Both the position numbers and the translations under genes were made by a program. From NCBI GenBank assembly GCA_963713825.1, contig CAVQNG010000006.1, forward strand, positions 1 through 22,696: 22,696 bases of DNA, in the 5' to 3' direction. How positions within the stretch are numbered: position 1 is the stretch's first letter; each line of letters begins with the position of its first letter. The DNA comes from an uncultured Acidobacteriota bacterium (GTDB taxonomy: Bacteria; Acidobacteriota; Thermoanaerobaculia; Multivoradales; JAHEKO01). Positions 3,998-18,793 of this stretch are shown one piece after another. Under the pieces are notes generated by a model that had not been told where the DNA came from, ran no database searches, and saw only the letters and a program-made list of their open reading frames with translations.

Positions 3998-4765
3998 CTA
4001 GCCCCCACAGGAGAAGCAGGGATACGGCCACCCCGAGGGAATCCCGTTGGATCCTCCCTCTCCTAGATAGTCGGGAAAGGGCTGCTCTCCGTTGTCCAGG
4101 ACCCAGCGCTGGGTGGCTTCACGGTTGGCGTCGAGCGTGACTTGATAGCCCCAGTAGACGTTTTGCGCGTTGATGCTGGCCGCGAGAAGCTGATTCAGCT
4201 TGGCCAGCTCTTGGCCGCTGTGGGCGCCGATCATGTTGGCGACGTTCAAAGCCTCGAGGTTGCCCTCGGCGCTGTCGGCCAGCGCCTGGAGCTCGGCGAG
4301 CTGCTCTTGGGTGGAGAAGTAGTCGCGAGCCTGGGCGCTCACGGCATCCAGCGTGGCGGCCAGGGTGTCCAGGGTCGTCGTGGTCCACTGCCCGAAGGCC
4401 TCGTTGTAGTTCGGTTCCTCCGTGGGCACGGCCCCGGCGAAGAGATCGCGGTACGCCTCGTAGAGACCCTCGAGCGAGTAGGAGAGGGCTTCCCCCTGCT
4501 GGGAGAGCTCATTGAGATAAACCAGCCACCCTCGTAGATCACGCCAGCTGGGGTCGCCGATCCGCTCGAGATTTCGATACATGGTTTCGATCTGGTCGAT
4601 CTGGTTCTCGATTTGCTCGAGCGCCCTCACCGCCTGGAGGATGTTCTCGGCCAGGTTTGCGGGGTCGATCACGGCCATCTGACCGATGGTCTTGGGTGCA
4701 GCTGCCAGGGACAACAACAAGCAGACGGCGGTGACGCGAGCCCGAAGAGCCACAGAATGAGTCAT
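3998..4765 (-). CDS. trbJ: Conjugal transfer protein TrbJ/VirB5
   Basis: Signal peptide, VIDPANLAENILQAVRALEQIENQIDQ, SAEGNLEALN; ATGA overlap with the trbE stop. Confidence 0.88.
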   Translation of the reverse strand: MTHSVALRARVTAVCLLLSLAAAPKTIGQMAVIDPANLAENILQAVRALEQIENQIDQIETMYRNLERIGDPSWRDLRGWLVYLNELSQQGEALSYSLEGLYEAYRDLFAGAVPTEEPNYNEAFGQWTTTTLDTLAATLDAVSAQARDYFSTQEQLAELQALADSAEGNLEALNVANMIGAHSGQELAKLNQLLAASINAQNVYWGYQVTLDANREATQRWVLDNGEQPFPDYLGEGGSNGIPSGWPYPCFSCGG

Positions 4766-7199
4766 GCGATGTTCTCCTTTGGGATGCCGCTGAGCTGATC
4801 CGCCCAATCGCCTAGACCACGTTCGCAGAGCCACCGGCTGGACCAGCCCTGCCCGTGCTCGGCTTCCAGCTCCCCAATCCTTCGCAGGCTCTCCTTGTCA
4901 CTCGAGCCCACAAAGGAGAGCGCCACAGGTCCGAGATTCAAGTCGATCAAGCGCCGGCCTAAGGCTGAGGTGTAGTAGTAATCCCGCTTCGGCACAGCGG
5001 CGGCCACAGTCTCCGTCTCGCGATCGCTCAGGCCGATCTCGCGATAGAGGGCCGCGCCATGCTCGGTGGCGGCTTCAGGATTGGGCAGGAAGAGCTTCGT
5101 CGGACAGGACTCATAGAGCACATAGCGTTCCTCCGAGCGATGAATGTCGGCCAAGCTCTGGGTAGCAAAGATGACTGCCGCATTCTTCTTGCGCAGTTCT
5201 TTAAGCCAGGTCTGGATTTGCTCGCCGAATAGGCCATGCATGAGAAAGGTCCAGGCCTCATCGATGACGATGAGCGTTGGCTCCCCGTTGAGGCGTTGCT
5301 CGATGCGGTGGAAGAGGTACAGAAGTACAGGCACGACCACCTTCTCGCGCAGCTCCATCAAGTGACCCATTTCAAAGACCTGGAACCGCCCGTCCACCAG
5401 ACCGTCTTTCCGCGCGTCGAGCAGCGTGCCGAGATTGCCGTTCAAGGTGTAGGGCCGAAGAGCTTCGCGGAGCGCACTGTCCTGGAGCCGGATCTCGAGA
5501 TCCGTCAAAGTGGGCTCGGGTGAGGCGGCCAGGAGCTCGAGGGCGATGTAGATCGCGGTTCTCTGTCGAGGCGTAACGTTAAGTCCTTGGAGGTCGAGCA
5601 GGACCTCGAGCCACTCGGCGGTCCAGACACGCTCAGAGCGATCACGGATTCCGGCCAGCGGACTGAAGCTCAGGCTGTCGACGCTCTGGCCGGCGATGGC
5701 GTAGTGGTGTCCTCCGGCAGCTTGGACCAGGGGCTTCGCAGAGTAGCCCTTGTCGAAGACGAAGACTTGGGACTCGGGGTATCGGAACCACTGAGCCTGC
5801 ATGAGCCCCAGCAGCGTCGACTTGCCGGACCCCGTGGGCCCAACCACCAAAGTGTGCCCAACGTCGCTGACATGGAGATTGAGCCGAAAAGGGGTCGAGC
5901 CGCTCGTAGCGGCCCAGAGCAGGGCCGGGCTCCCCGTGCGGAACATGGGGGAGGGGTTCGCGGGGAGCCCAGCCCAAACACTGGTCAATGGCAAAAGATC
6001 GGCAAGATTCCGCGTGCTGATCAGCGGCCGTCGCACGTTGGGGTGGCCGTGGCCGGGAAGGCTCGCGAGAAAGGCCTCGATGGCATTGACCTCCTCGAGC
6101 CGGGCGCCGAAGCCGTGGTTTCGGAGCTCTTTCAAGACCAGCCGTATGGTCTCCTTGAGCTCCGAGCCCTCCTCGTTCATGAGGATCAGGGCTGGGGTGT
6201 AGTAGCCATACCGGACTGCGTGGGAGGCGGCGTCGGCCATTGCTTCATCGGCGTCCCGTGCCATCCGCAAAGCGTCTTTGTTGGGGAAGACGTGGCGCCG
6301 TTTCCCCGCTGGACTGACGATCTCGGCCAGTAACCCGGTCAGCCCGCGGCGCTTCTGCCACCATTTCATGCGGTACCGGCGGATGTGACGAGAGGCGGTC
6401 TCAGGATCTAACGGTATCCAGCGAGTCGAGTAGCGGTAGGAGACCGGGAGTCGGTCGAGAAAGGAAAGGACTCCGGGGGTGGTCTGACCCGGGAAGCTGG
6501 TGAGGCCGATCGGCGCGATCCACTCACGACCGATCCGTGGCGCAAAACCACCGGAGAAGTCCTGGTCGGCCAGCACGGCGTCTAGGTAGCAGGGTGGATC
6601 GGGCACAGCGACCGGGTGATCCAGACCCGTCAGGCAGCGATGGAGATGCGCAAGAACATCCGAGGAGTCGAGCCGGCAAATCGAGAGAAGGCTCGAGAGA
6701 CGATCTTCGACGTCGCTGAGCTGCTTTTCGAAGAGCTCGAGCTGCTCGTCCCAGTCGATGCCGCGATCCTCGCTACCCTCGATGAACCACTTGACGGCCC
6801 GCGAGGAGGCTTCCTGGGGCGGCATGTGCGTGACAAGGAGGGTGTAGCTGGTCTCATGGTTCTTCCGGCGCCTGTGTAGTGGCGACGGCGCTCCTCGTCG
6901 ATGAGCTCGGTGATGGGATCGGGGAAAGCTCCAGCGGTTGGATATTCGGCGGAGGGGCTGCGAACCGCATCGACCTGAAGCATCCAGTTGTGGCCAAGCG
7001 GCAGCAGGGCGGCGTTGACCTGGCGCGCGAGAATCGCCAGCTCTTCGGGCGAGGCGGAGTCCATGTCTGGCCCGCGATAGGTCCAACCAGCGAGAAAGCT
7101 TCCGTCTTTGTTGACGATCACACCAGGTGCGACTAGGGCTCCCCAGGTCAGGAGATCAGCGAGTCCCTTGGGCTTGCGCCGGTGTTCGCGGAGCAACAT
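4762..7199 (-). CDS. trbE: Conjugal transfer ATPase TrbE/VirB4 (frameshift near 6860)
   Basis: N-terminus LADLLTWGALVAPGVIVNKDGSF...YRGPD (in ORF 6630-7667); Walker A GPTGSGKS, FDKGYS, Walker B IVIDEAW and FATQS (in ORF 4762-7086). Confidence 0.95.
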
Positions 7200-7201
7200 G
7201 G

Positions 7202-7528
7202 CTAGCGCGGTTGCTTGTGGAACGGATGGATCGGTGCGAGCGGAGCCTCGAAGCTCGCGAGCGCGGGGTAGAAGGGCTGATAGAGCAGATGGCGGGCATA
7301 AACCCTCCACATCTGTGGGTCGAATCGCGCAGCAATCACCAGCAGAGAGTGGCCTGCCGAACCGAGAAGAGCAGCCAGCAGAAACGTGATTGGATGCGGC
7401 CCAACGCCGAGCAGGAGTACGACGATGGCCAGGAGATTGATCAACACCAGCTCCCGCTCGGCTCCGCCCAGGAGGATAGGTCGAACCAACGAGGCGTGAA
7501 TCGGGGCCTCCAGGGAGTTGCGGCTCAA
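7202..7528 (-). CDS. trbD: Conjugal transfer protein TrbD/VirB3
   Basis: PIHASLVRPILLGGAERE, two TM segments, ARFDPQ; TTG start overlaps the trbC stop. Confidence 0.88.
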   Translation of the reverse strand: MSRNSLEAPIHASLVRPILLGGAERELVLINLLAIVVLLLGVGPHPITFLLAALLGSAGHSLLVIAARFDPQMWRVYARHLLYQPFYPALASFEAPLAPIHPFHKQPR

Positions 7529-7845
7529 AAGACCGCTCCTGTGAATCCGAGGGCGGCCAGGAACGTGACTGCAGCCAGAGCGATCGCGCCACCGAAGACG
7601 ATCTGAGAGACCTTTCGGCCGCCGGTGCCATGCTCGGTGAAGGACCAGGCGAGGCCGGCCACGACAATCGCGGCGATCACCAGCAGGCGCGCAACCGTGC
7701 CGGTCAAGTTGTCGATCAGGGCCTGGAGGCCCGTGTCCCACGGCATGGCGGGGCCGCTGATGCTTGCCCCGGCCACGGCAGGGAAGAGGGTTGCCAGCAC
7801 GAGTGCCCAGGCGGCAAGACGGAGGCTAGGAGGATGTGAGTTCAC
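7525..7845 (-). CDS. trbC: Pilin TrbC/VirB2
   Basis: AAGGAG RBS and GTG at 7845; signal peptide, MPWDTGLQALIDNLTGTVAR, two hydrophobic helices. Confidence 0.88.
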   Translation of the reverse strand: MNSHPPSLRLAAWALVLATLFPAVAGASISGPAMPWDTGLQALIDNLTGTVARLLVIAAIVVAGLAWSFTEHGTGGRKVSQIVFGGAIALAAVTFLAALGFTGAVF

Positions 7846-8835
7846 TCGGGATTCTCCTTCTTCAGCAGGTGGATCGGCGATCGGCTCGACATGGAATTCC
7901 CCGTCCGGGCCGAGTCCCTGAACGGAAACGAGTTGCCGGACCCGGCGACTGCTGCCCTGGCGTTCCATGTGGACCACGAGGTGAACCGTGGAGGCAATCA
8001 GGCGTGTCTGGGAGGGGACGCCGGCTTCCTGTGCTAGCTGGTCGAGGCGAGTCAATGCCTCAGCCGGCGCTATTGGCATGCACCGTGGCGCAGCCGCCGG
8101 GGTTTCCGGTATTCCAGGCTTTGAGAAGGTCCAGGGCTTCCGCACCACGGACCTCACCGATGATGATGCGATCGGGTCGCAGTCGGATCGCGGCCCGAAC
8201 CAGGTCTCGCAGGGAGACGTTCTCGGTCGTGTGGAGGGTGACGTGGTTGGGTGAGTTGCACTGGAGCTCGTAAGTGTCCTCGAGGAGCAGAAGGCGTTCC
8301 GCCCGCGGTGCCAGCCATTCCATCTCACGGATGATGGCGTTGGCCAGAGTCGTCTTACCGCTGCCCGGGCCTCCGGAGATGAGGATGTTCTTGCGGCCGA
8401 AGATGGCTCCCTGAAGAACATCAGCCTGCGCTAGGGTGAGGATGCCCTCTTCGACATACTGATCCAGCGTGTAGATCGAAGTGGCCCGCTTGCGGATCGC
8501 GAAGACGGGGGAGGGGACTACCGGAGGCAGTAGGCCCTCGATCCGGCTCCCATCCAGCGGCAGCTCCGCCTCGAGGATCGGATGCTGATCGTTGACGACT
8601 CGATTGAGTAGACCGGCGACCGTGGAGAGCAGGCTCTCAGCCTGTGGATCGTCCATCGTGGCATCCAGCCGAACCAGCCCCTTTCTCGCGAGTCGATCCA
8701 CAGCTCGCCATCGGCGTTTCGCATCACCTCCGTGATGTCGTCATCAGCCAGTGCTTTGGCGACAGAATCGCCGAGCTCGCGGAGGAGGGATTCGCGGTGG
8801 CGAGTCGTGGATTCGTGATGTGAAAGGATTTTCAC
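7842..8835 (-). CDS. trbB: Conjugal transfer ATPase TrbB/VirB11 (2-3 frameshifts)
   Basis: Pieces in three frames: ITEVMRNADGELWID; ELPLDGSRIEGLLPPVV, Walker A GGPGSGKTT, LEDTYEL, LRPDRIIIGEVRG, WNTG, TVHANS; EALTRLDQL. Confidence 0.92.
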
Positions 8836-9583: not shown

Positions 9584-10717
9584 CTGATTCACCCTCTAGT
9601 GCCTCAATAAGTATGCGCAATTTTGCTACCAGCTCATCAAACGTAACCACCACCACATCCTTCAGTTCAGCACGAAAAAGCTCGATGGCAGGTTTCCTCG
9701 TCGGAACTAGTTGGCACTGGTGGCGTTTCCAATGATGACGAGACACTTTGGCCGAAACGCGTGGAATCGACTTTGCGACCTTCCTACTAGTCCATCGTAT
9801 TCCTTCACCAGCGAATCACGATAGGTCAGGACCTGCTGACTGATCGCGCCGGCCAATTCGCGGCTCGGCGCATAGACACCAGTCCTGTACTCGTGCGATT
9901 CCAGCAGCGGGGTGGTCGGTGTCTTCAGCTCCACAATAACGGCGTTTTGGGTGACAGGGTTCTTTGCCAAATAGTCGGCAAGATGTCCACCGTGATACTC
10001 AATCCCCTTGCCCCCCACAAAGGCCTTCCCCTTGATGATCAAGATCGGGACCGCCACGAGTTGGGCCAGCACGAAAGCATGCTCTTCTAGAGCAGCTTGC
10101 CAGTAGTCCTCGCCTCCCTCCTCAAGTCGGCCTTCCCATTCAGAGAGAACATTCTTGAGGCTCGCGAGTCGGGTCAGGACACCAAGACGATCAAGGCTCG
10201 ATATGTCCAACCTTTGAATCCGATCGACGACGACCTTGGAATCACCCACAGAGGCGACCCACTCAAGGAACTGCGACAGAACATCGACCCCAGCCCTTTG
10301 GCTGAGCGCTACGATACGCTCGAAGTCGAAACGATTGGCAACTTCTTCGGCGTTGTCGTCTGCAAGGTCGAGCTTGAGAAGATGGATCTTCCCACTAGGC
10401 AGACCATGACGTTGGTGGTGGCGGTATAAGGCAGCCATGTGCCGTAAGAAAGCATGGACCTCGTCCGCACTCAGCTTCAGCTTGACCCACTCACTTGCCT
10501 TGAGGTGAGTGAGCTTCAGTTCGCTATGATCCTCCCAATCCTCGGCTTTTCGTTTTCGCTGAAACACGAACGTGCCATCAATGCAGGCCTTTGGATCATT
10601 CGGGTTGTTCAACAGAACGGCCTTGAAAACCAGTCTCCGCTGATCAGTCTCCCGAAGCGTTATTGGCTGGCATTCAGCCGTTCTTCCGGACGTTCTAGTT
10701 ATTGAGAAGGTGTCCAT
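9561..10717 (-). CDS. sduA: Shedu anti-phage nuclease SduA (DUF4263), frameshift near 9715
   Basis: ADYL...VIVELKTP, ELAGAISQ(Q)VLTYR, CLVIIG; the family C-terminus ELFRAELKDVVVVTFDEL is in ORF 9561-9746. Confidence 0.85.
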
Positions 10718-13891: not shown

Positions 13892-14436
13892 TGGAGGGAG
13901 TCGGGCTGGGCCGGATCGATAATCCAGAGGGGTTGGACCTGGCCCAGGACCATTGAGCTCTGAACGGGCCCAAAGAACCGGCTGTCCCAGGAGTTCTCGC
14001 GGGGCGAGAACAGCCAGAGCTGGCCAGGGGAAAGGACATAAGAGCCGGCGGCAAGAGGGTAGAGGGTGCGACCTTTCGAGTCGACGGCCGGCGCCGGGCT
14101 CTGGATGTGCTGCCCATCCACGAACACTCCTTCAGGTTTGATCTCGACGCGACTGCCTGACGCAGCGACCACGTGTTTGATGACCGGCGAGGCGCCGGCG
14201 GGACATGAGCCCTGTCTCAAGTAACCGCGCTTGCGACCTAGCGTGCCAAAAGACTCGGGCAAGCAGGCAGCCACCAGATCTCCGAGCCCCACAGGAGATT
14301 TGCTGAGCCGGTAAAGACCAATCGGCACGCTTGGCGTCAGATTCAAGCGAAGGCCAGCGGCTTCAACGGCCCAGCAGGTTATGGCTGTACCCGCCAACAG
14401 GAGGATCGGCGTAAAGGATCGCGGTCGAAGCCTCAC
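13888..14436 (-). CDS. traF: Conjugative pilin-maturation S26 peptidase TraF
   Basis: NLTPSVPIGLY, RGYL..G.CP...VIKHV, SWDSRFFGPV. Confidence 0.92.
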   Translation of the reverse strand: MRLRPRSFTPILLLAGTAITCWAVEAAGLRLNLTPSVPIGLYRLSKSPVGLGDLVAACLPESFGTLGRKRGYLRQGSCPAGASPVIKHVVAASGSRVEIKPEGVFVDGQHIQSPAPAVDSKGRTLYPLAAGSYVLSPGQLWLFSPRENSWDSRFFGPVQSSMVLGQVQPLWIIDPAQPDSLQ

Positions 14437-15629
14437 GAGCGCCCACCTCTGTCCAACTCGAGAGAAGCATCGGCCACCTTGCGGCTGAGTGAGATCGTCA
14501 GTCGCAGTAGCTGTAGATGAGGGGCCGGCACTACCCGCGCGACCAGATGCCAGCCGAGCCGACTGATCAACCTGGTGGCAGTCTGAGATAGCTCTGATGT
14601 CTTGGGCTCTCGGTGCCGGGCGGGGGCCTTGGGACGGACCATGGCCTCGGCGACCTGCATAGTGCTCTTCGCTGCTCCTGTCTTGGAGATCGCGTGCTGG
14701 AGAGCGGTGCGAGCTTCGCGGAGGCTCGGGACCATGACTTCGCGGGCCGCCCTCTCGCTGCTTCGCTGAATCGCGATCCTCTCGGCTGTCTGACGGAGCT
14801 CGTGAATTTCCCGCCAGCGACTGGGTTGGGGTTTGGCAAGGGATTTGTCTGTCTGAGCCTCAAACGGTCCCAGCCGCTTCTGAAGCCGGCCGAGCGAGGC
14901 GTCACGATCCACAAACGATGCCTTGACCCTCCGCCGTCCGTCGGTCACGACCAGACCTCGGCCTCTCTTCTCGAGGTGAAGGCCGTAGTCCGCCAAACGA
15001 GTGTGGAGCTCTTTCCATGAGCGGGACTCCTGGAGATCTCGGCGAGCTACCTCCCGCACGTGCTCGCCAAAGGGGCGTTCCCCCGTGAGAGTCGAACCCC
15101 TGCGATCTCCGCTGCTGAGCTGAACACCGGTGTATCGATCTTGGTCGGGTAAGGCAGAGTGGCGACCAGGGACCTGTCGCAGCCCCAGCTCCAGCTCCTG
15201 ACGGCGGAGCGACCGCTCGAGGCGGGCGTAGTCATTGCCTGTGTGCCAGGCACGCTTCGTTTCCGGGTGGACGCGGTTCACCATGACATGGACGTGCTGG
15301 TGAGGAGTGTCATTGTGGGCCACTACAAGAGCCTGATGCTGATCCAGGCCCAGGTCCCGAAGGGTGCGGTCGACGACCTGGAGCATTGCCTCTCGGCCAA
15401 GGCGCTCCTCCGGGGGCAGATTGAGCGTCAGGTGATAGACGGGCTTCTTGACCCGCGCTCTCTCATTGGCAGTGACCCGCATGAAGGAGGCGGCGATCTC
15501 TGGATCGGTTGAAGGGAGATTTCGGCCGGAGACCCATTCCACTCGATCGGCTGCCTGACCGTCCTTTCCGGTCAGCAGATAGGACTGCAGTCCTTTGAAT
15601 CCTCGACCGTGGGTGACTTTCGCGATCAT
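14433..15629 (-). CDS. MOBP-type relaxase (Relaxase/VirD2-like)
   Basis: GRGFKGLQSYL (catalytic Tyr), PVYHLTLN, 3H motif AHNDTPHQHVHVMVNRVHP. Confidence 0.92.
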   Translation of the reverse strand: MIAKVTHGRGFKGLQSYLLTGKDGQAADRVEWVSGRNLPSTDPEIAASFMRVTANERARVKKPVYHLTLNLPPEERLGREAMLQVVDRTLRDLGLDQHQALVVAHNDTPHQHVHVMVNRVHPETKRAWHTGNDYARLERSLRRQELELGLRQVPGRHSALPDQDRYTGVQLSSGDRRGSTLTGERPFGEHVREVARRDLQESRSWKELHTRLADYGLHLEKRGRGLVVTDGRRRVKASFVDRDASLGRLQKRLGPFEAQTDKSLAKPQPSRWREIHELRQTAERIAIQRSSERAAREVMVPSLREARTALQHAISKTGAAKSTMQVAEAMVRPKAPARHREPKTSELSQTATRLISRLGWHLVARVVPAPHLQLLRLTISLSRKVADASLELDRGGRS

Positions 15630-15955
15630 GAGAGATGCCGTATGGCGCTGAGGATCTGGGTGAGTACCTCATTCAGGTGCCGCGTGTCGCCGAGTCGACC
15701 TGTCGCGTTGGCGACGTAGGCCAGTTGGTTCAGGTTGTTGCCGATGCGACCCAGGTGGTAGATGGCCTTTTCCTCGACACGCCGAGGCCGGGCCCGAGGA
15801 ATGGTGCCCAAAGCGGCCGTCCGTAAGTAGGTCGAGAGGGGAGTGCCGCAAAGCTCCGCCCTTCGGGTGAGCTTCTGATGTTCGTGAGGCGAGAGGCGAA
15901 CGGACAGGACCTCGGTGCGCCTGTGGACCGCGTCGACCCTGCGGTCACACGCCAC
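15626..15955 (-). CDS. mobC: Relaxosome accessory protein MobC (RHH)
   Basis: SVRLSPHEHQKL...LSTYLR..AL and LGRIGNNLNQLA; AAAGGA RBS before GTG 15955; ATGA overlap with the relaxase. Confidence 0.9.
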   Translation of the reverse strand: MACDRRVDAVHRRTEVLSVRLSPHEHQKLTRRAELCGTPLSTYLRTAALGTIPRARPRRVEEKAIYHLGRIGNNLNQLAYVANATGRLGDTRHLNEVLTQILSAIRHLS

Positions 15956-15988
15956 AGCCGTTCCTTTTGAGCGCCCGGCAGGGTTGCG

Positions 15989-16017
15989 AAAAAGAGGGCT
16001 TTCCCACGGGAAAGTCC
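15989..16017 (-). terminator. Hairpin plus U-rich tract upstream of mobC (terminator or oriT inverted repeat)
   Basis: Minus strand GGACTTTCC-CGTG-GGAAAGCCC followed by TCTTTTT. Confidence 0.45.
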
Positions 16018-16204
16018 CGAGCCGTGATGACAGAAGCGCCCCCGGCGCGTATGACATCGCATTGCTCGCATAGGAAGCGAAGTGCTGTCCACACCCATCC
16101 TGTGTGCTCGAGGCGCTGGACTTCGAGCGTCAGGGTGGACGACGGACCTGGATCGCTACCGGGAGCTCGGGTTGGTGGTCGTGGCGGGCTCCATCGCCTC
16201 GCCG

Positions 16205-16375
16205 GCTTGGAAGACAGTTTTGTTCTGGTCTCGCGGCAGATGAACCATGCTCGCATTCGGGCCTCGTGGGCCATCTCTTCGTTCGGTTCGGTGAGGGTGC
16301 ATAGTCTCGCTGGAGTGCCTTGGACGGTTTGTCCTGGGCCATGCAATGCGTCGATGCTGTCCCTCGAATCCTTTT
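16205..16375 (-). ncRNA. Putative bridge/seek RNA of the IS110 (ends approximate)
   Basis: Two consecutive stem/internal-loop/hairpin units (16287-16368 and 16210-16280) carry the target match (16338-16350) and the donor match (16248-16256). Confidence 0.7.
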
Positions 16376-16459
16376 GCCGGAGAGCCGTTTGGCGCCTCGA
16401 CACCAGGCCCGCCTCCGCCGGTCGCGGTTGTCGGTCCGTTCCGGTCGGGAGTCGGGCGC

Positions 16460-17497
16460 CTAGGTCATGGCTCGGTAGACCTCCTCGTTCTTCCACATGG
16501 CCAGTACGGTTGCGGCGATCTTGCGTGCAATCGTCAGCCTGGCCAAGGGCGGGCGAGTGCCGGCCTCCAGGAGCCGGTTGTAAGCCTCTTTCAAGGGATG
16601 ACCGGCCTTGGTCTGATGAATGGCTGTAATGGCCGCGCCCTTGAAGATCGCCTTGAGCGTCGGATTGTGGTTGCGATTGAGCCCTCGAGTCTGGACGGCC
16701 TGGGCCTTGATCCAGCCGCTTTCGGTCTGCACCCAGTCGGCCGAGCTGCGCGTGACGACTCCGAAACCGCAGTAGCTCCAGAATTGCCGTTTGCTGCGAA
16801 ACCGGTGCGGCGTGATGACGGTCGCGATCAGCATCGCCGCCCGGATCGGTCCGATGCCCGGAGCCGTCTCCAGCACCCTCGAGATCCGATACGTGTGCGA
16901 CTCCTTGACCAGAGCCCGCTCGGCCTCGGCTCTCAGCGCGGTCACGGAGTCGAGCTCGAGTCCGAGGAGTCTCGCCGGCGCTCGCATCGCCGCGGGCAAC
17001 TGCTCCAGCCACGGGTCTCGGTGCTGGGGATCGTAGACGCTGTTCCCTGAGCAGTGAATCCCACGGCGGCGCAGGTGGCTCTTGAGCCGATTCTTGGTCC
17101 GCGCGACATCCTGAGTCATCACACGATAGACACGGGCCCACTCGCGTAGCTGCCGGAAACGTCTTGGGGACTTGAACACTCCGGGTCCGGCCAGGCCGAT
17201 GCGCAGCTTCTCGGCCAGGCCGTGCGCATCGATTGCATCGCTCTTGGCTCCCGGTGACCACTCGTTCTGGTAGACCACCAGCTGGGCCGCATGTGGCGAG
17301 AGGATCTCGTAGAGCCATTCGCTCCAGGTACTCTCTTCGATGCAAATGTGCAGCGTTCCCCGCAGCTTGCCCACCGAGCTGACCAGGGCATGCCCGTTGG
17401 TGGCCACGACCTCCTGGGTCACGCGCTTGCCGGTAGCGCTCAGCACACAGATCGTCGAGCTGTCGCGGTGGACGTCGACACCGATGTATCGTTCCAT
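16460..17497 (-). CDS. IS110-family DEDD recombinase/transposase, 345 aa
   Basis: AGGAGG RBS and ATG 17497; YIGVDVH, CIEES, KSDAIDA, TAPGIGPI, RFRSKRQFWSYCG...RSS, ARKIA. Confidence 0.95.
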   Translation of the reverse strand: MERYIGVDVHRDSSTICVLSATGKRVTQEVVATNGHALVSSVGKLRGTLHICIEESTWSEWLYEILSPHAAQLVVYQNEWSPGAKSDAIDAHGLAEKLRIGLAGPGVFKSPRRFRQLREWARVYRVMTQDVARTKNRLKSHLRRRGIHCSGNSVYDPQHRDPWLEQLPAAMRAPARLLGLELDSVTALRAEAERALVKESHTYRISRVLETAPGIGPIRAAMLIATVITPHRFRSKRQFWSYCGFGVVTRSSADWVQTESGWIKAQAVQTRGLNRNHNPTLKAIFKGAAITAIHQTKAGHPLKEAYNRLLEAGTRPPLARLTIARKIAATVLAMWKNEEVYRAMT

Positions 17498-17612
17498 GGC
17501 GGTGTTCCTCCTTTCGGGCTCGATGCCCGGGTCGTTGTCTTGCCAACCCAAGCATCTCCCGATTGGGGGAGACCGCCACCATCGGATTCCTCAATTCAGG
17601 TCTCTCCTCTGC

Positions 17613-17650
17613 ATGGCGACATGACGCGTCTTACTACGTAGTCTTGCTGC
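17613..17650. other. Putative oriT (nic-proximal part), split from mobC by the IS
   Basis: Directly upstream of mobC in the empty allele; hairpin arm, palindrome ACTACGTAGT (17633-17642) and GTCTTG|C resembling MOBP nic sites. Confidence 0.45.
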
Positions 17651-17767: not shown

Positions 17768-17906
17768 CTTCCACAGCTGGCCGAGCTGCTACAGGAAGAG
17801 ATCTACAGGAACCACTATAGGGAAGGGGTGAGAGTTTATGCGTGGTCGCGGTCGCCAAAGGGGGAGAGTTTATGCGTACCGAGGGGGAGTGTTTATGTGT
17901 GGAAAT
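17768..17906. repeat. Iteron array / putative oriV
   Basis: Three copies of AGGGG(T)GAG(A/T)GTTTATG(C/T)GT (17823-17843, 17858-17877, 17882-17900), CTACAGGAA twice (17789, 17803) and a DnaA-box-like ATTTCCACA on the minus strand (17898-17906), all just downstream of repA. Confidence 0.7.
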
Positions 17907-17929: not shown

Positions 17930-18793
17930 TCACGGTTCGAGTCGTCTCCGAATGTGGCAGGGTGAGGGCTTGAGAAGGAGTCCACCGCGGACCTGCTCGA
18001 CTCGAGCAGCGGGGTAGAGTACGAGTACCTGGCGGAGTCCGGCGAGGAAGTAGCGCTTGAAGTCTTTACGGTCTCGATAGTCGGCCCCGAATTGCACCGC
18101 AAGAGCAGCCCAGGGAATCCGAGAGGGCTTCCTCAGGTAGCTGTTGCGATGGGTGAGCCAACTGTAGATATCGAGCGCCATCGGGCTTCTGAGGGCTTTG
18201 AAGGCGCGAAGGTCTATCGGAACGGGCCGTTCACACACGGCCTCGAAGAACCCGGGGCTCAAAGAGACCGTTGAGCGCCACGAGACCGCCTGCTCAGGCC
18301 TCACTGGGTTCCACCAAAGATGAGCTTCGTCTGAAACTCGAAAACCCCGGTCGTGCCATTCGCCTGAAGCCCGTTTGTCCCAGGTGAAGGCAATGGTCGC
18401 TCCGAATAGCCGTTGCATCTGGTCTCGGAGTCGGCCGATGGGACCAGTCCGTCCGCCTCGTGGGAGCAGGCCGAGCTGAGCCATGAAGCTGCTCAGCGAC
18501 GGGCCGAGCTGCAGTACAGGCTCCCGAGTTCGAACTGCCTCCGTCGTGACCCAGGCCATGAGGAGTCGAGGGTAGCGGCCGTACGGTAGCTCTAAGAGCG
18601 GATGAGCCGTGATCGAGACGCGGAGTGAACCGTTGGTGCGCACAAAGGTCTTCGTCCGCTGTCTGCTGTGGGGGAGAGTGGTCTGAACGAGCAGCCGCGC
18701 CATGAAGCCCAGTGCACCAGCTCTCTTGGCTTCCTCCGCCTCGATGAGGAGTGACTCTCGGAGGAGTCTGTCTTCGGGCGTCTGACGGCCGAT
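17930..18793 (-). CDS. repA: Plasmid replication initiator RepA (RepA_C type)
   Basis: IEAEEAKRAGALGFMARLLVQTTLPH, LPYGRYPRLLMAWVTTEAVRT, SPMALDIYSWL, QFG. Family-like sequence extends upstream of ATG 18703 to an in-frame ATC at 18793 behind GGAGG. Confidence 0.85.
   Translation of the reverse strand: MGRQTPEDRLLRESLLIEAEEAKRAGALGFMARLLVQTTLPHSRQRTKTFVRTNGSLRVSITAHPLLELPYGRYPRLLMAWVTTEAVRTREPVLQLGPSLSSFMAQLGLLPRGGRTGPIGRLRDQMQRLFGATIAFTWDKRASGEWHDRGFRVSDEAHLWWNPVRPEQAVSWRSTVSLSPGFFEAVCERPVPIDLRAFKALRSPMALDIYSWLTHRNSYLRKPSRIPWAALAVQFGADYRDRKDFKRYFLAGLRQVLVLYPAARVEQVRGGLLLKPSPCHIRRRLEP

Follow-up and report, generated by a model that had tools for sequence, protein, structure and literature searches.

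The window analysed here is an entire contig (G000:C6; 22,696 bp, ~61% G+C) that carries an IS1111-type insertion sequence (IS), of the IS110 family. Its neighbours are a traJ/mobC-like gene on one side and repA on the other, a place where an origin of transfer (oriT) of MOBP type would be expected. The IS interrupts the sequence ATTG^CT^YGCTG, which lies 110 bp upstream of the traJ/mobC-like gene and a MOBP-type relaxase gene, and short segments of its 3' non-coding region match the two flanks of this target. The explanation that we judge best, and hold with fairly high confidence, is that an IS1111-type element was guided by RNA to the CT within this motif, which is a candidate for the nick region of the oriT. 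The IS and the two halves of its target are placed as follows.

16065..17644, minus strand: IS1111-type IS, with a body at 16067-17642 (1576 bp) and CT at both junctions.
16061..16066, plus strand: left half of the target, ATTG, with one copy of the CT core, placed by empty sites and by contig ends at 16059 and 16069.
17645..17649, plus strand: right half of the target, TGCTG, placed by the conserved motif and by contigs joining ...GCATTG to 17643 onward.

The genome holds exactly two copies of the IS, in the window and on contig C35, and they are 100% identical. To the left of the IS, the likeness between the two copies ends just before GCATTGC; to the right, the identity carries on for 34 letters past the boundary drawn in an initial annotation of the window, up to ...CTACGTAGTCT. 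Natural uninterrupted sites show to which side these letters belong. The C35-type site is found uninterrupted (...GTATTACGAAAGCATTGCTCGCTGCC...) on G004:C201 and G033:C22, where the left flank ...GCATTG directly joins CTCGCTGCC... without the intervening GCATGGCGACATGACGCGTCTTACTACGTAGT and without the 34 letters, and the window-type site is found uninterrupted on G016:C1 (...CGCGTATGACATGCCATTGCTTGCTGTG). The natural empty site is the 3' arm of an inverted repeat followed by ATTGCTYGCTGC. Metagenome contigs give the same junctions: those of three runs from three studies (X1, X6 and X7) match the right flank only from 17643 rightwards, preceded in X1 and X7 by ...GAGAGCATTG (...GCATTG), and those of X1, X2 and X6 match the other end of the IS only from 16059, preceded by the C35-type flank. 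Furthermore, the 34-mer has diverged in sister ISs, in step with the rest of the IS. Because of the empty sites, the contigs and this divergence, the right boundary is at 17644 rather than ~17611, and the IS extends over 16065-17644. We considered whether the two copies had arisen by recombination between origins and rejected this, as their flanks diverge exactly at the IS ends. In the contigs of X1 and X7, a mobC-side flank of C35 type is followed by the repA-side flank exactly as in the window; in sediment communities, the two halves of the origin region therefore combine as mosaics.

The segments that match the target lie in a predicted RNA encoded on the minus strand, within the IS.

16242..16365, minus strand: predicted seekRNA/bridge-RNA-like region, with two stem/internal-loop domains (-37.7 kcal/mol, z = -1.77).
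16343..16352, minus strand: guide T, GACGCATTGC, complementary to the target strand in the transposase direction, on the mobC side.
16302..16314, minus strand: guide B, TCCAGCG and then AGACTA (the first six letters of the IS), which follows the repA-side flank.
16250..16256, minus strand: donor-end-like guide, ATGCGAG (the 3' end of the IS plus the core), which changes with the IS ends in sisters.

We aligned the 3' non-coding regions of six relatives, plus that of L089, and found conserved blocks broken by short variable segments. Each IS has a guide T that reads as the reverse complement of its own flank on the mobC side, the matching letters being GCAATGCG in the window and L008, GCAATG in L009, GGAATCGT in L025, GCAGTGGG in L012 and GCA(A/C)AACC in L089. 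Over seven sites it agrees with its own flank at 8, 7, 8, 6, 8, 8 and 7 of 8 positions, whereas guide T of the three most diverged sister ISs agrees with foreign flanks at only 2-6 of 8. The differing guides of L012, L025 and L089 go with correspondingly differing flanks. On the repA side, the last four or five letters of guide B track the flank in the window, C35, L009, L025 and L089, and the donor-end-like guide, ATGCGAG here, is ATGCAAG or ACGCAAG in sisters with matching IS ends. Guide segments co-vary with flanks across six sister ISs, and the complementarity between guide and target has been reprogrammed in nature. The predicted fold places the guides in the loops of the two stem/internal-loop domains; among 14 relatives, 82% of cells are paired, compared with 31-54% when partner columns are slid.

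In the mechanism that we propose, two segments of a structured RNA from the 3' non-coding region would pair with the two target strands, guide T with GCAATGCG and guide B through CAGCG plus AG, and RNA-guided recombination would place the IS at the CT dinucleotide of ATTG^CT^YGCTG. The ideal target of such guides would be CGCATTG-CT-CGCTG on the plus strand of the window, from which the window site departs only at the tenth letter (T instead of C) and the C35 site only at the first (A instead of C).

The surroundings of the target make it a candidate nick region. Two inverted repeats precede it.

15996..16018, plus strand: distal inverted repeat, GGGCTTTCCC/GGGAAAGTCCC, which forms a stem when the reconstructed empty site is folded.
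16024..16060, plus strand: nick-proximal imperfect inverted repeat, from the fold, its 3' arm being the left arm of a hairpin proposed in the initial annotation.

We searched for the motif within 1.1 kb upstream of the relaxase gene at 29 relaxase-homologue loci from 300 genomes of the order. ATTGCT[CT]GCT is present exactly in six of the 29, where by our estimate ~0.06 exact occurrences are expected by chance, and with one mismatch in a seventh; it is also present in C35-type sites. When six natural sites and the reconstructed window site are folded, the motif stands directly 3' of the 3' arm of the inverted repeat in every case, the arms varying while the motif is constant. The homologous repeats in L059, L061, L058, L066, L068 and L077 are long and run right up to ATTGCT, and 110-nt origin segments fold at -20 to -35 kcal/mol. 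At the same position, more distant relaxase loci carry ACTGGCT(C/T/G)GCTC, TATCCTGG or TATTCTGA, with ACTGGCTYGCTC as a positional variant. Of these, TATCCTGG is close to the published MOBP core (C/T)ATCCTG(C/T), which in RP4 comes right after an inverted repeat (PMC3772185). The motif is conserved and so placed, and this layout, a conserved motif after an inverted repeat, makes it the best nick-region candidate. We put the chance that it is the nick region of the oriT somewhat above even, in which case nic would probably lie just after YGCTG. The sole match to the MOBP core in the vicinity, CATCCTGT at 16096-16103, lies inside the IS near its end; it occurs only in this IS and in L008 and is probably a chance match, since it is not kept in other sister ISs. 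A literature search for a nic sequence ending in TCGCTG returned unrelated primer matches only.

Several observations weigh against the explanation set out above. RNA structure lends modest support to the guide region, with z at -1.77 and covariation matched by 108 of 500 shuffles (not significant). RNAalifold, applied to the 14 relatives, gives the second domain only and no compensatory pairs, the hand-drawn structure being compatible, and Rfam at gathering thresholds has 0 matches in the window. With respect to the nick region, 22 of the 29 relaxase loci are without the motif, and the site, ATTGCTYGCTG(C/T), departs from the MOBP core, agreeing with it only in the last three letters and the next pyrimidine. 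This departure leaves room for a reading in which the boundaries and the RNA guidance hold, but the motif serves the accessory-gene/relaxase operon as a promoter, operator or leader element, with nic at another place. A distance of ~110 bp upstream of the gene would be plausible for a promoter, and a nearby box is likewise conserved and overlaps the ribosome-binding site.

15964..15994, plus strand: conserved leader box, CTTTTGAGCGCC...GCGAAAAAG, upstream of the accessory gene and spanning its ribosome-binding site.

This box is kept, with changes, in L058, L059, L064, L068, L076, L006 and L007. Against this reading, the motif in every case adjoins the 3' arm of a variable inverted repeat, in the layout of MOBP origins; distant relaxase loci have TATCCTGG or TATTCTGA at the same position; and C35-type islands keep the motif though no relaxase gene follows mobC. 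We therefore regard the regulatory reading as unlikely, if still to be reckoned with, and continue to treat the motif as a candidate nick region.

The distribution of the IS bears on whether it is aimed at origins. The four copies with identical guides (in the window, C35, L112 and L113) all adjoin mobC homologues. The MobC homologues beside them are 47-72% identical while the transposases are 98-100% identical, and thus the IS is younger than its host elements. Within one genome, the window and C35 sites belong to backbones that are unrelated, and their MobC proteins share 47% identity. Traces of insertion at the same position are present in further elements: L108, a metagenome contig of 2308 nt, has an 85-nt remnant of the window IS end at a window-type site beside a MobC homologue, and L013 has a diverged IS end at the position of the G033 empty site, with an 80-nt flank that is 96% identical and its mobC side off the contig. 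The remnant in L108 runs straight into a truncated repA. A sibling IS in L108 (79% nucleotide identity) is inside repA, and its guide T, ACAGTAGA, matches the repA flank.

Beyond these copies the picture changes, and the following facts count on the other side. Mapping the insertion sites of the wider clade, as the initial annotation had suggested, gave 18 sites, of which 6 are oriT-like and 12 are elsewhere; L008, L009, L012, L047 and L089 adjoin unrelated genes, and the rest of the 12 are the palindrome-loop sites of L025, L049, L111 and L114, the sites of L109 and L110, and that of the L108 sibling inside repA. L109 and L110, which have the same 24-nt IS end, adjoin GNAT and DinB genes without mobC. 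The genome itself contains two unoccupied 14-mers with one mismatch to the target (C4:282687 and C25:874827), so a sequence match alone does not predict occupancy, and something beyond the 14 letters, possibly the adjacent inverted repeat, may matter for targeting, ISPpu10 offering a comparison. The insertions in L112, L113 and C35 could moreover share ancestry, all three being in one site type. One might therefore suppose that there is no specialisation at all, that the IS lands at any 13-14-nt match, and that adjacency to mobC reflects the sampling of related elements with ancestral insertions. Against this stand the unrelated backbones of the window and C35, the youth of the IS relative to its hosts, and the diverged end and the remnant in L013 and L108; we consider such a lack of specialisation improbable, more so than the regulatory reading of the motif. 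The suggestion of the initial annotation that this IS may be programmed for conjugative origins thus holds for the lineage with these guides only, because 12 of the 18 clade sites are elsewhere, and it is this lineage that, as far as the data go, appears to be aimed at origins.

More distant relatives show no such association: across 32 of their loci there was no MobC or relaxase match. A relative at 57-58% amino acid identity is present in at least 11 copies in L029-L038 and L046, all from one metagenome-assembled genome (MAG), and in G075, three of them in tandem ~2.2 kb apart; there was no MobC or relaxase near these copies. On the C35 island (G000:C35, L003, 1-20000), mobC is accompanied by a P4-type integrase, RepA_C, a DnaB-like helicase, an RHS-repeat protein and a Crp-like regulator split over two open reading frames (ORFs). 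No relaxase or MobC emerged when the ORFs downstream of C35 mobC, and those beside L008, L009 and L013, were compared with Pfam at a permissive threshold (E up to 1), and the C35 island might be mobilised in trans by the window relaxase via the shared motif. The genome has a third mobC homologue, at G000:C3:1149257-1149574 (L004; 58% amino acid identity), without the target motif. It is a truncated remnant, as its similarity to the window ends near 16048, before the motif.

A different sister IS (~78-80% amino acid identity), found in L025 (534-2116), L049, L111 and L114, occupies a palindrome loop, GGGGACACGA-AG-GAATCGTGTCCCC. L111 and L114 have a variant of the palindrome, and guide T of the IS is changed to match. 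This sister does aim at a hairpin apex, probably that of a repeat like the repetitive extragenic palindromic (REP) sequences.

The occupation of a palindrome loop by this sister is one of two facts that favour the hairpin of the initial annotation, in which the IS would recognise CGCGT-ATG-aca-TCGC-attgcatg-GCGA-CAT-g-ACGCG and be inserted in its loop, with nic ~30 bp to the right. The other is the fold itself: the two strings are where the annotation placed them (CGCGTATGACATCGC at 16046-16060, GCGACATGACGCG at 17616-17628), and when joined they form the described hairpin at -8.3 kcal/mol with DNA parameters, a value equalled by just 16 of 1000 shuffles of the right arm. However, the right arm belongs to the IS, is absent from empty sites and contigs and in relatives diverges along with the IS, and we give this reading almost no credence. 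Among the 17-mers of the IS, 56 of 3124 pair equally well with the left flank; the pairing stands little above chance, and the C35 copy reaches only -5.6 kcal/mol because its left flank differs. The hairpin is an artefact, formed when the terminus of the IS is paired with a flank of its target; in the fold of the origin region, its left arm is the 3' arm of the inverted repeat, with its partner upstream at ~16024-16040. The target is accordingly no apex of a hairpin, but a conserved motif that directly follows, on the 3' side, the foot of a long inverted repeat. The nic proposed with the hairpin, ACTACGTAGTCTTG|C (17633-17647), falls with it, as 12 of its 15 letters are IS end (17633-17644). 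The distance of about 110 bp to mobC that the annotation gave was correct, as the GTG at 15955 lies 110 bp from the insertion point.

The inverted repeat is the likely binding site of the accessory protein and the relaxase, and the insertion sets it 1.58 kb apart from the five letters that end the motif. At the left junction, ATTGCTCGC is re-formed; the last two letters are not. The origin would then most likely be disabled in cis, and transfer would be blocked. A broader proposal, which we offer tentatively and rate below even, is that an IS1111-type lineage in sediment Acidobacteriota wrote its guide against the oriT nick region of IncP-like conjugative or mobilisable elements, and a sibling IS wrote one against their repA, so that both would be parasites of mobile elements, with the inverted repeat perhaps a second structural cue and each insertion switching off transfer.

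RNA-guided IS110/IS1111 elements are described as choosing specific sites such as REP repeats. We found no report of an RNA-guided IS aimed at a conjugative origin, with the proviso that the supplementary target lists of PMC11187229 may hold others. As far as our literature searches reach, the mechanism is already known and the target class is unreported. Should the motif be the nick region, this would be a natural RNA-programmed element that severs the relaxosome binding site from nic. Such a case would be relevant to conflicts among mobile elements and supply a ready-made guide/target pair for switching origins off. The motif also provides a testable oriT consensus for the MOBP-like elements found in Acidobacteriota, the transfer origins of which have yet to be charted.

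The wider setting is an IncP-like transfer module on the minus strand of the window, recognised by profile matches to a TraJ/TraI/TraF/TraG gene set. The genes nearest the IS are as follows.

15626..15955, minus strand: traJ/mobC-like relaxosome accessory gene (NikA-like 1.3e-18; MobC 1.7e-6).
14433..15629, minus strand: MOBP-type relaxase, TraI/MobA(P)-like (Pfam PF03432 1.5e-30, plus TraI_middle).
17930..18703, minus strand: RepA_C replication protein (PF04796 8.3e-28), on the far side of the origin region.

Leftwards from the IS come the NikA/MobC-like gene, the TraI/MobA(P)-like relaxase, TraF, an IncP-type TraG, a Shedu gene and TrbB/C/E/J/L/F/G/I; to the right are iteron-like repeats and then the RepA_C gene. 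The relaxase scores 215.5 bits against NCBIfam NF041893, under the 250-bit cut-off. The ORF of the accessory gene is open as far as 16057 and its domain begins at residue 46 of this long ORF; the start is probably the GTG at 15955, with AAGGA 8 nt upstream of it. Three direct repeats, GAGAGTTTATGCGT / GAGTGTTTATGTGT, lie at 17826-17905 upstream of repA and are kept in G004 and G033; they are iteron-like and mark a probable replication origin. The Shedu (SduA) defence gene, at 9707-10717, is inside the transfer module between trbB and traG. Two genes of the module are split over two frames, trbB (8060-8701 with 7525-8421; TrbB profile positions 47-245 and 246-298) and trbE (4762-7086 with 6630-7667; TrbE profile positions 2-113 and 111-803), and these splits are either true frameshifts of a decaying element, as would fit one that no longer transfers, or assembly errors. 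Among PLSDB plasmids, the sole match to a 3.7-kb query region was a 107-nt repA stretch in two records, and the 111-nt origin leader gave chance-level matches only (E ~0.9).

The IS itself is an IS1111-type member of the IS110 family, and its named relatives are from MAGs of Acidobacteriota/Thermoanaerobaculia. No statement made here draws on G006, a genome flagged as unpublished. It has one gene.

16460..17497, minus strand: DEDD transposase, 345 aa (PF01548 5.9e-15; PF02371 1.1e-12).

The transposase has both the DEDD (RuvC-like) N-terminal and the Transposase_20 C-terminal domain, as required for the IS110 family, and scores 134.5 bits against NF033542, just below the 140-bit cut-off. Non-coding DNA amounts to ~394 nt 3' of the gene (16067-16459), compared with ~146 nt 5' of it. 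In the IS1111 group, subterminal inverted repeats are 11-13 bp and perfect or nearly so, flanked by terminal extensions, 6-7 bp at the left end and 3 bp at the right, and the RNA carries the complement of the top strand before the match to the bottom strand (PMC11187229). Here the repeats at 16069-16079 and 17627-17638, CGTAGTAAGACG and CGCTTCCTATG, have 9 matches and one indel, and the sister IS in L009 has a perfect subterminal repeat, CGTAGGAAGG. Beyond the repeats lie 6 letters (AGACTA) at one end and 2-4 (CG, optionally with AG) at the other, according to the side to which the core is assigned. On the transposase strand, guide T (16343-16352) comes before guide B (16308-16314), the IS1111-type order, and both reach the core.

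Among known systems, the bridge RNA of IS621, of the IS110 group, is encoded 5' of the transposase gene and has guides in internal loops, the second loop matching the IS end, with a 2-nt core. The IS described here similarly has a 2-nt core, CT on the plus strand, with loop guides and a match to the IS end that we assign from sequence only; unlike that of IS621, its predicted RNA is encoded 3' of the transposase gene. Other members of the same family make their home on functional repeats of other mobile elements, IS4321/IS5075 on the ends of Tn21-family transposons and the IS1111-attC group on integron attC sites; the target class here is a different one. A close likeness is to the IS1111 elements with seekRNA (ISEc11, ISPa11, ISKpn4 and ISPst6; Siddiquee et al. 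2024, PMC11187229), which share the DEDD transposase, the long 3' non-coding region, the subterminal inverted repeats with short asymmetric extensions, the top-strand complement before the bottom-strand match, and natural reprogramming. They differ in that the target here is beside the inverted repeat of a putative conjugative origin, that the subterminal repeats here are imperfect (9 of 11-12), and that the RNA here is predicted from sequence. The 'dual-match' arrangement of ISPpu10 (bioRxiv 10.64898/2026.03.19.712850) also has a base-paired target directly beside a stem-loop encoded by the target; in ISPpu10 that stem-loop forms a 5' extension inside a REP-type repeat, with an effect that was measured, whereas the stem considered here, predicted computationally, is an inverted repeat of origin type and lies on the opposite side of the target. 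Finally, like the IncP/RP4-type (MOBP) oriT, the candidate origin is upstream of traJ-like and relaxase genes, with an inverted repeat immediately before the conserved candidate nick region, and differs from it in having T(C/T)GCTG as its core in place of ATCCTG.

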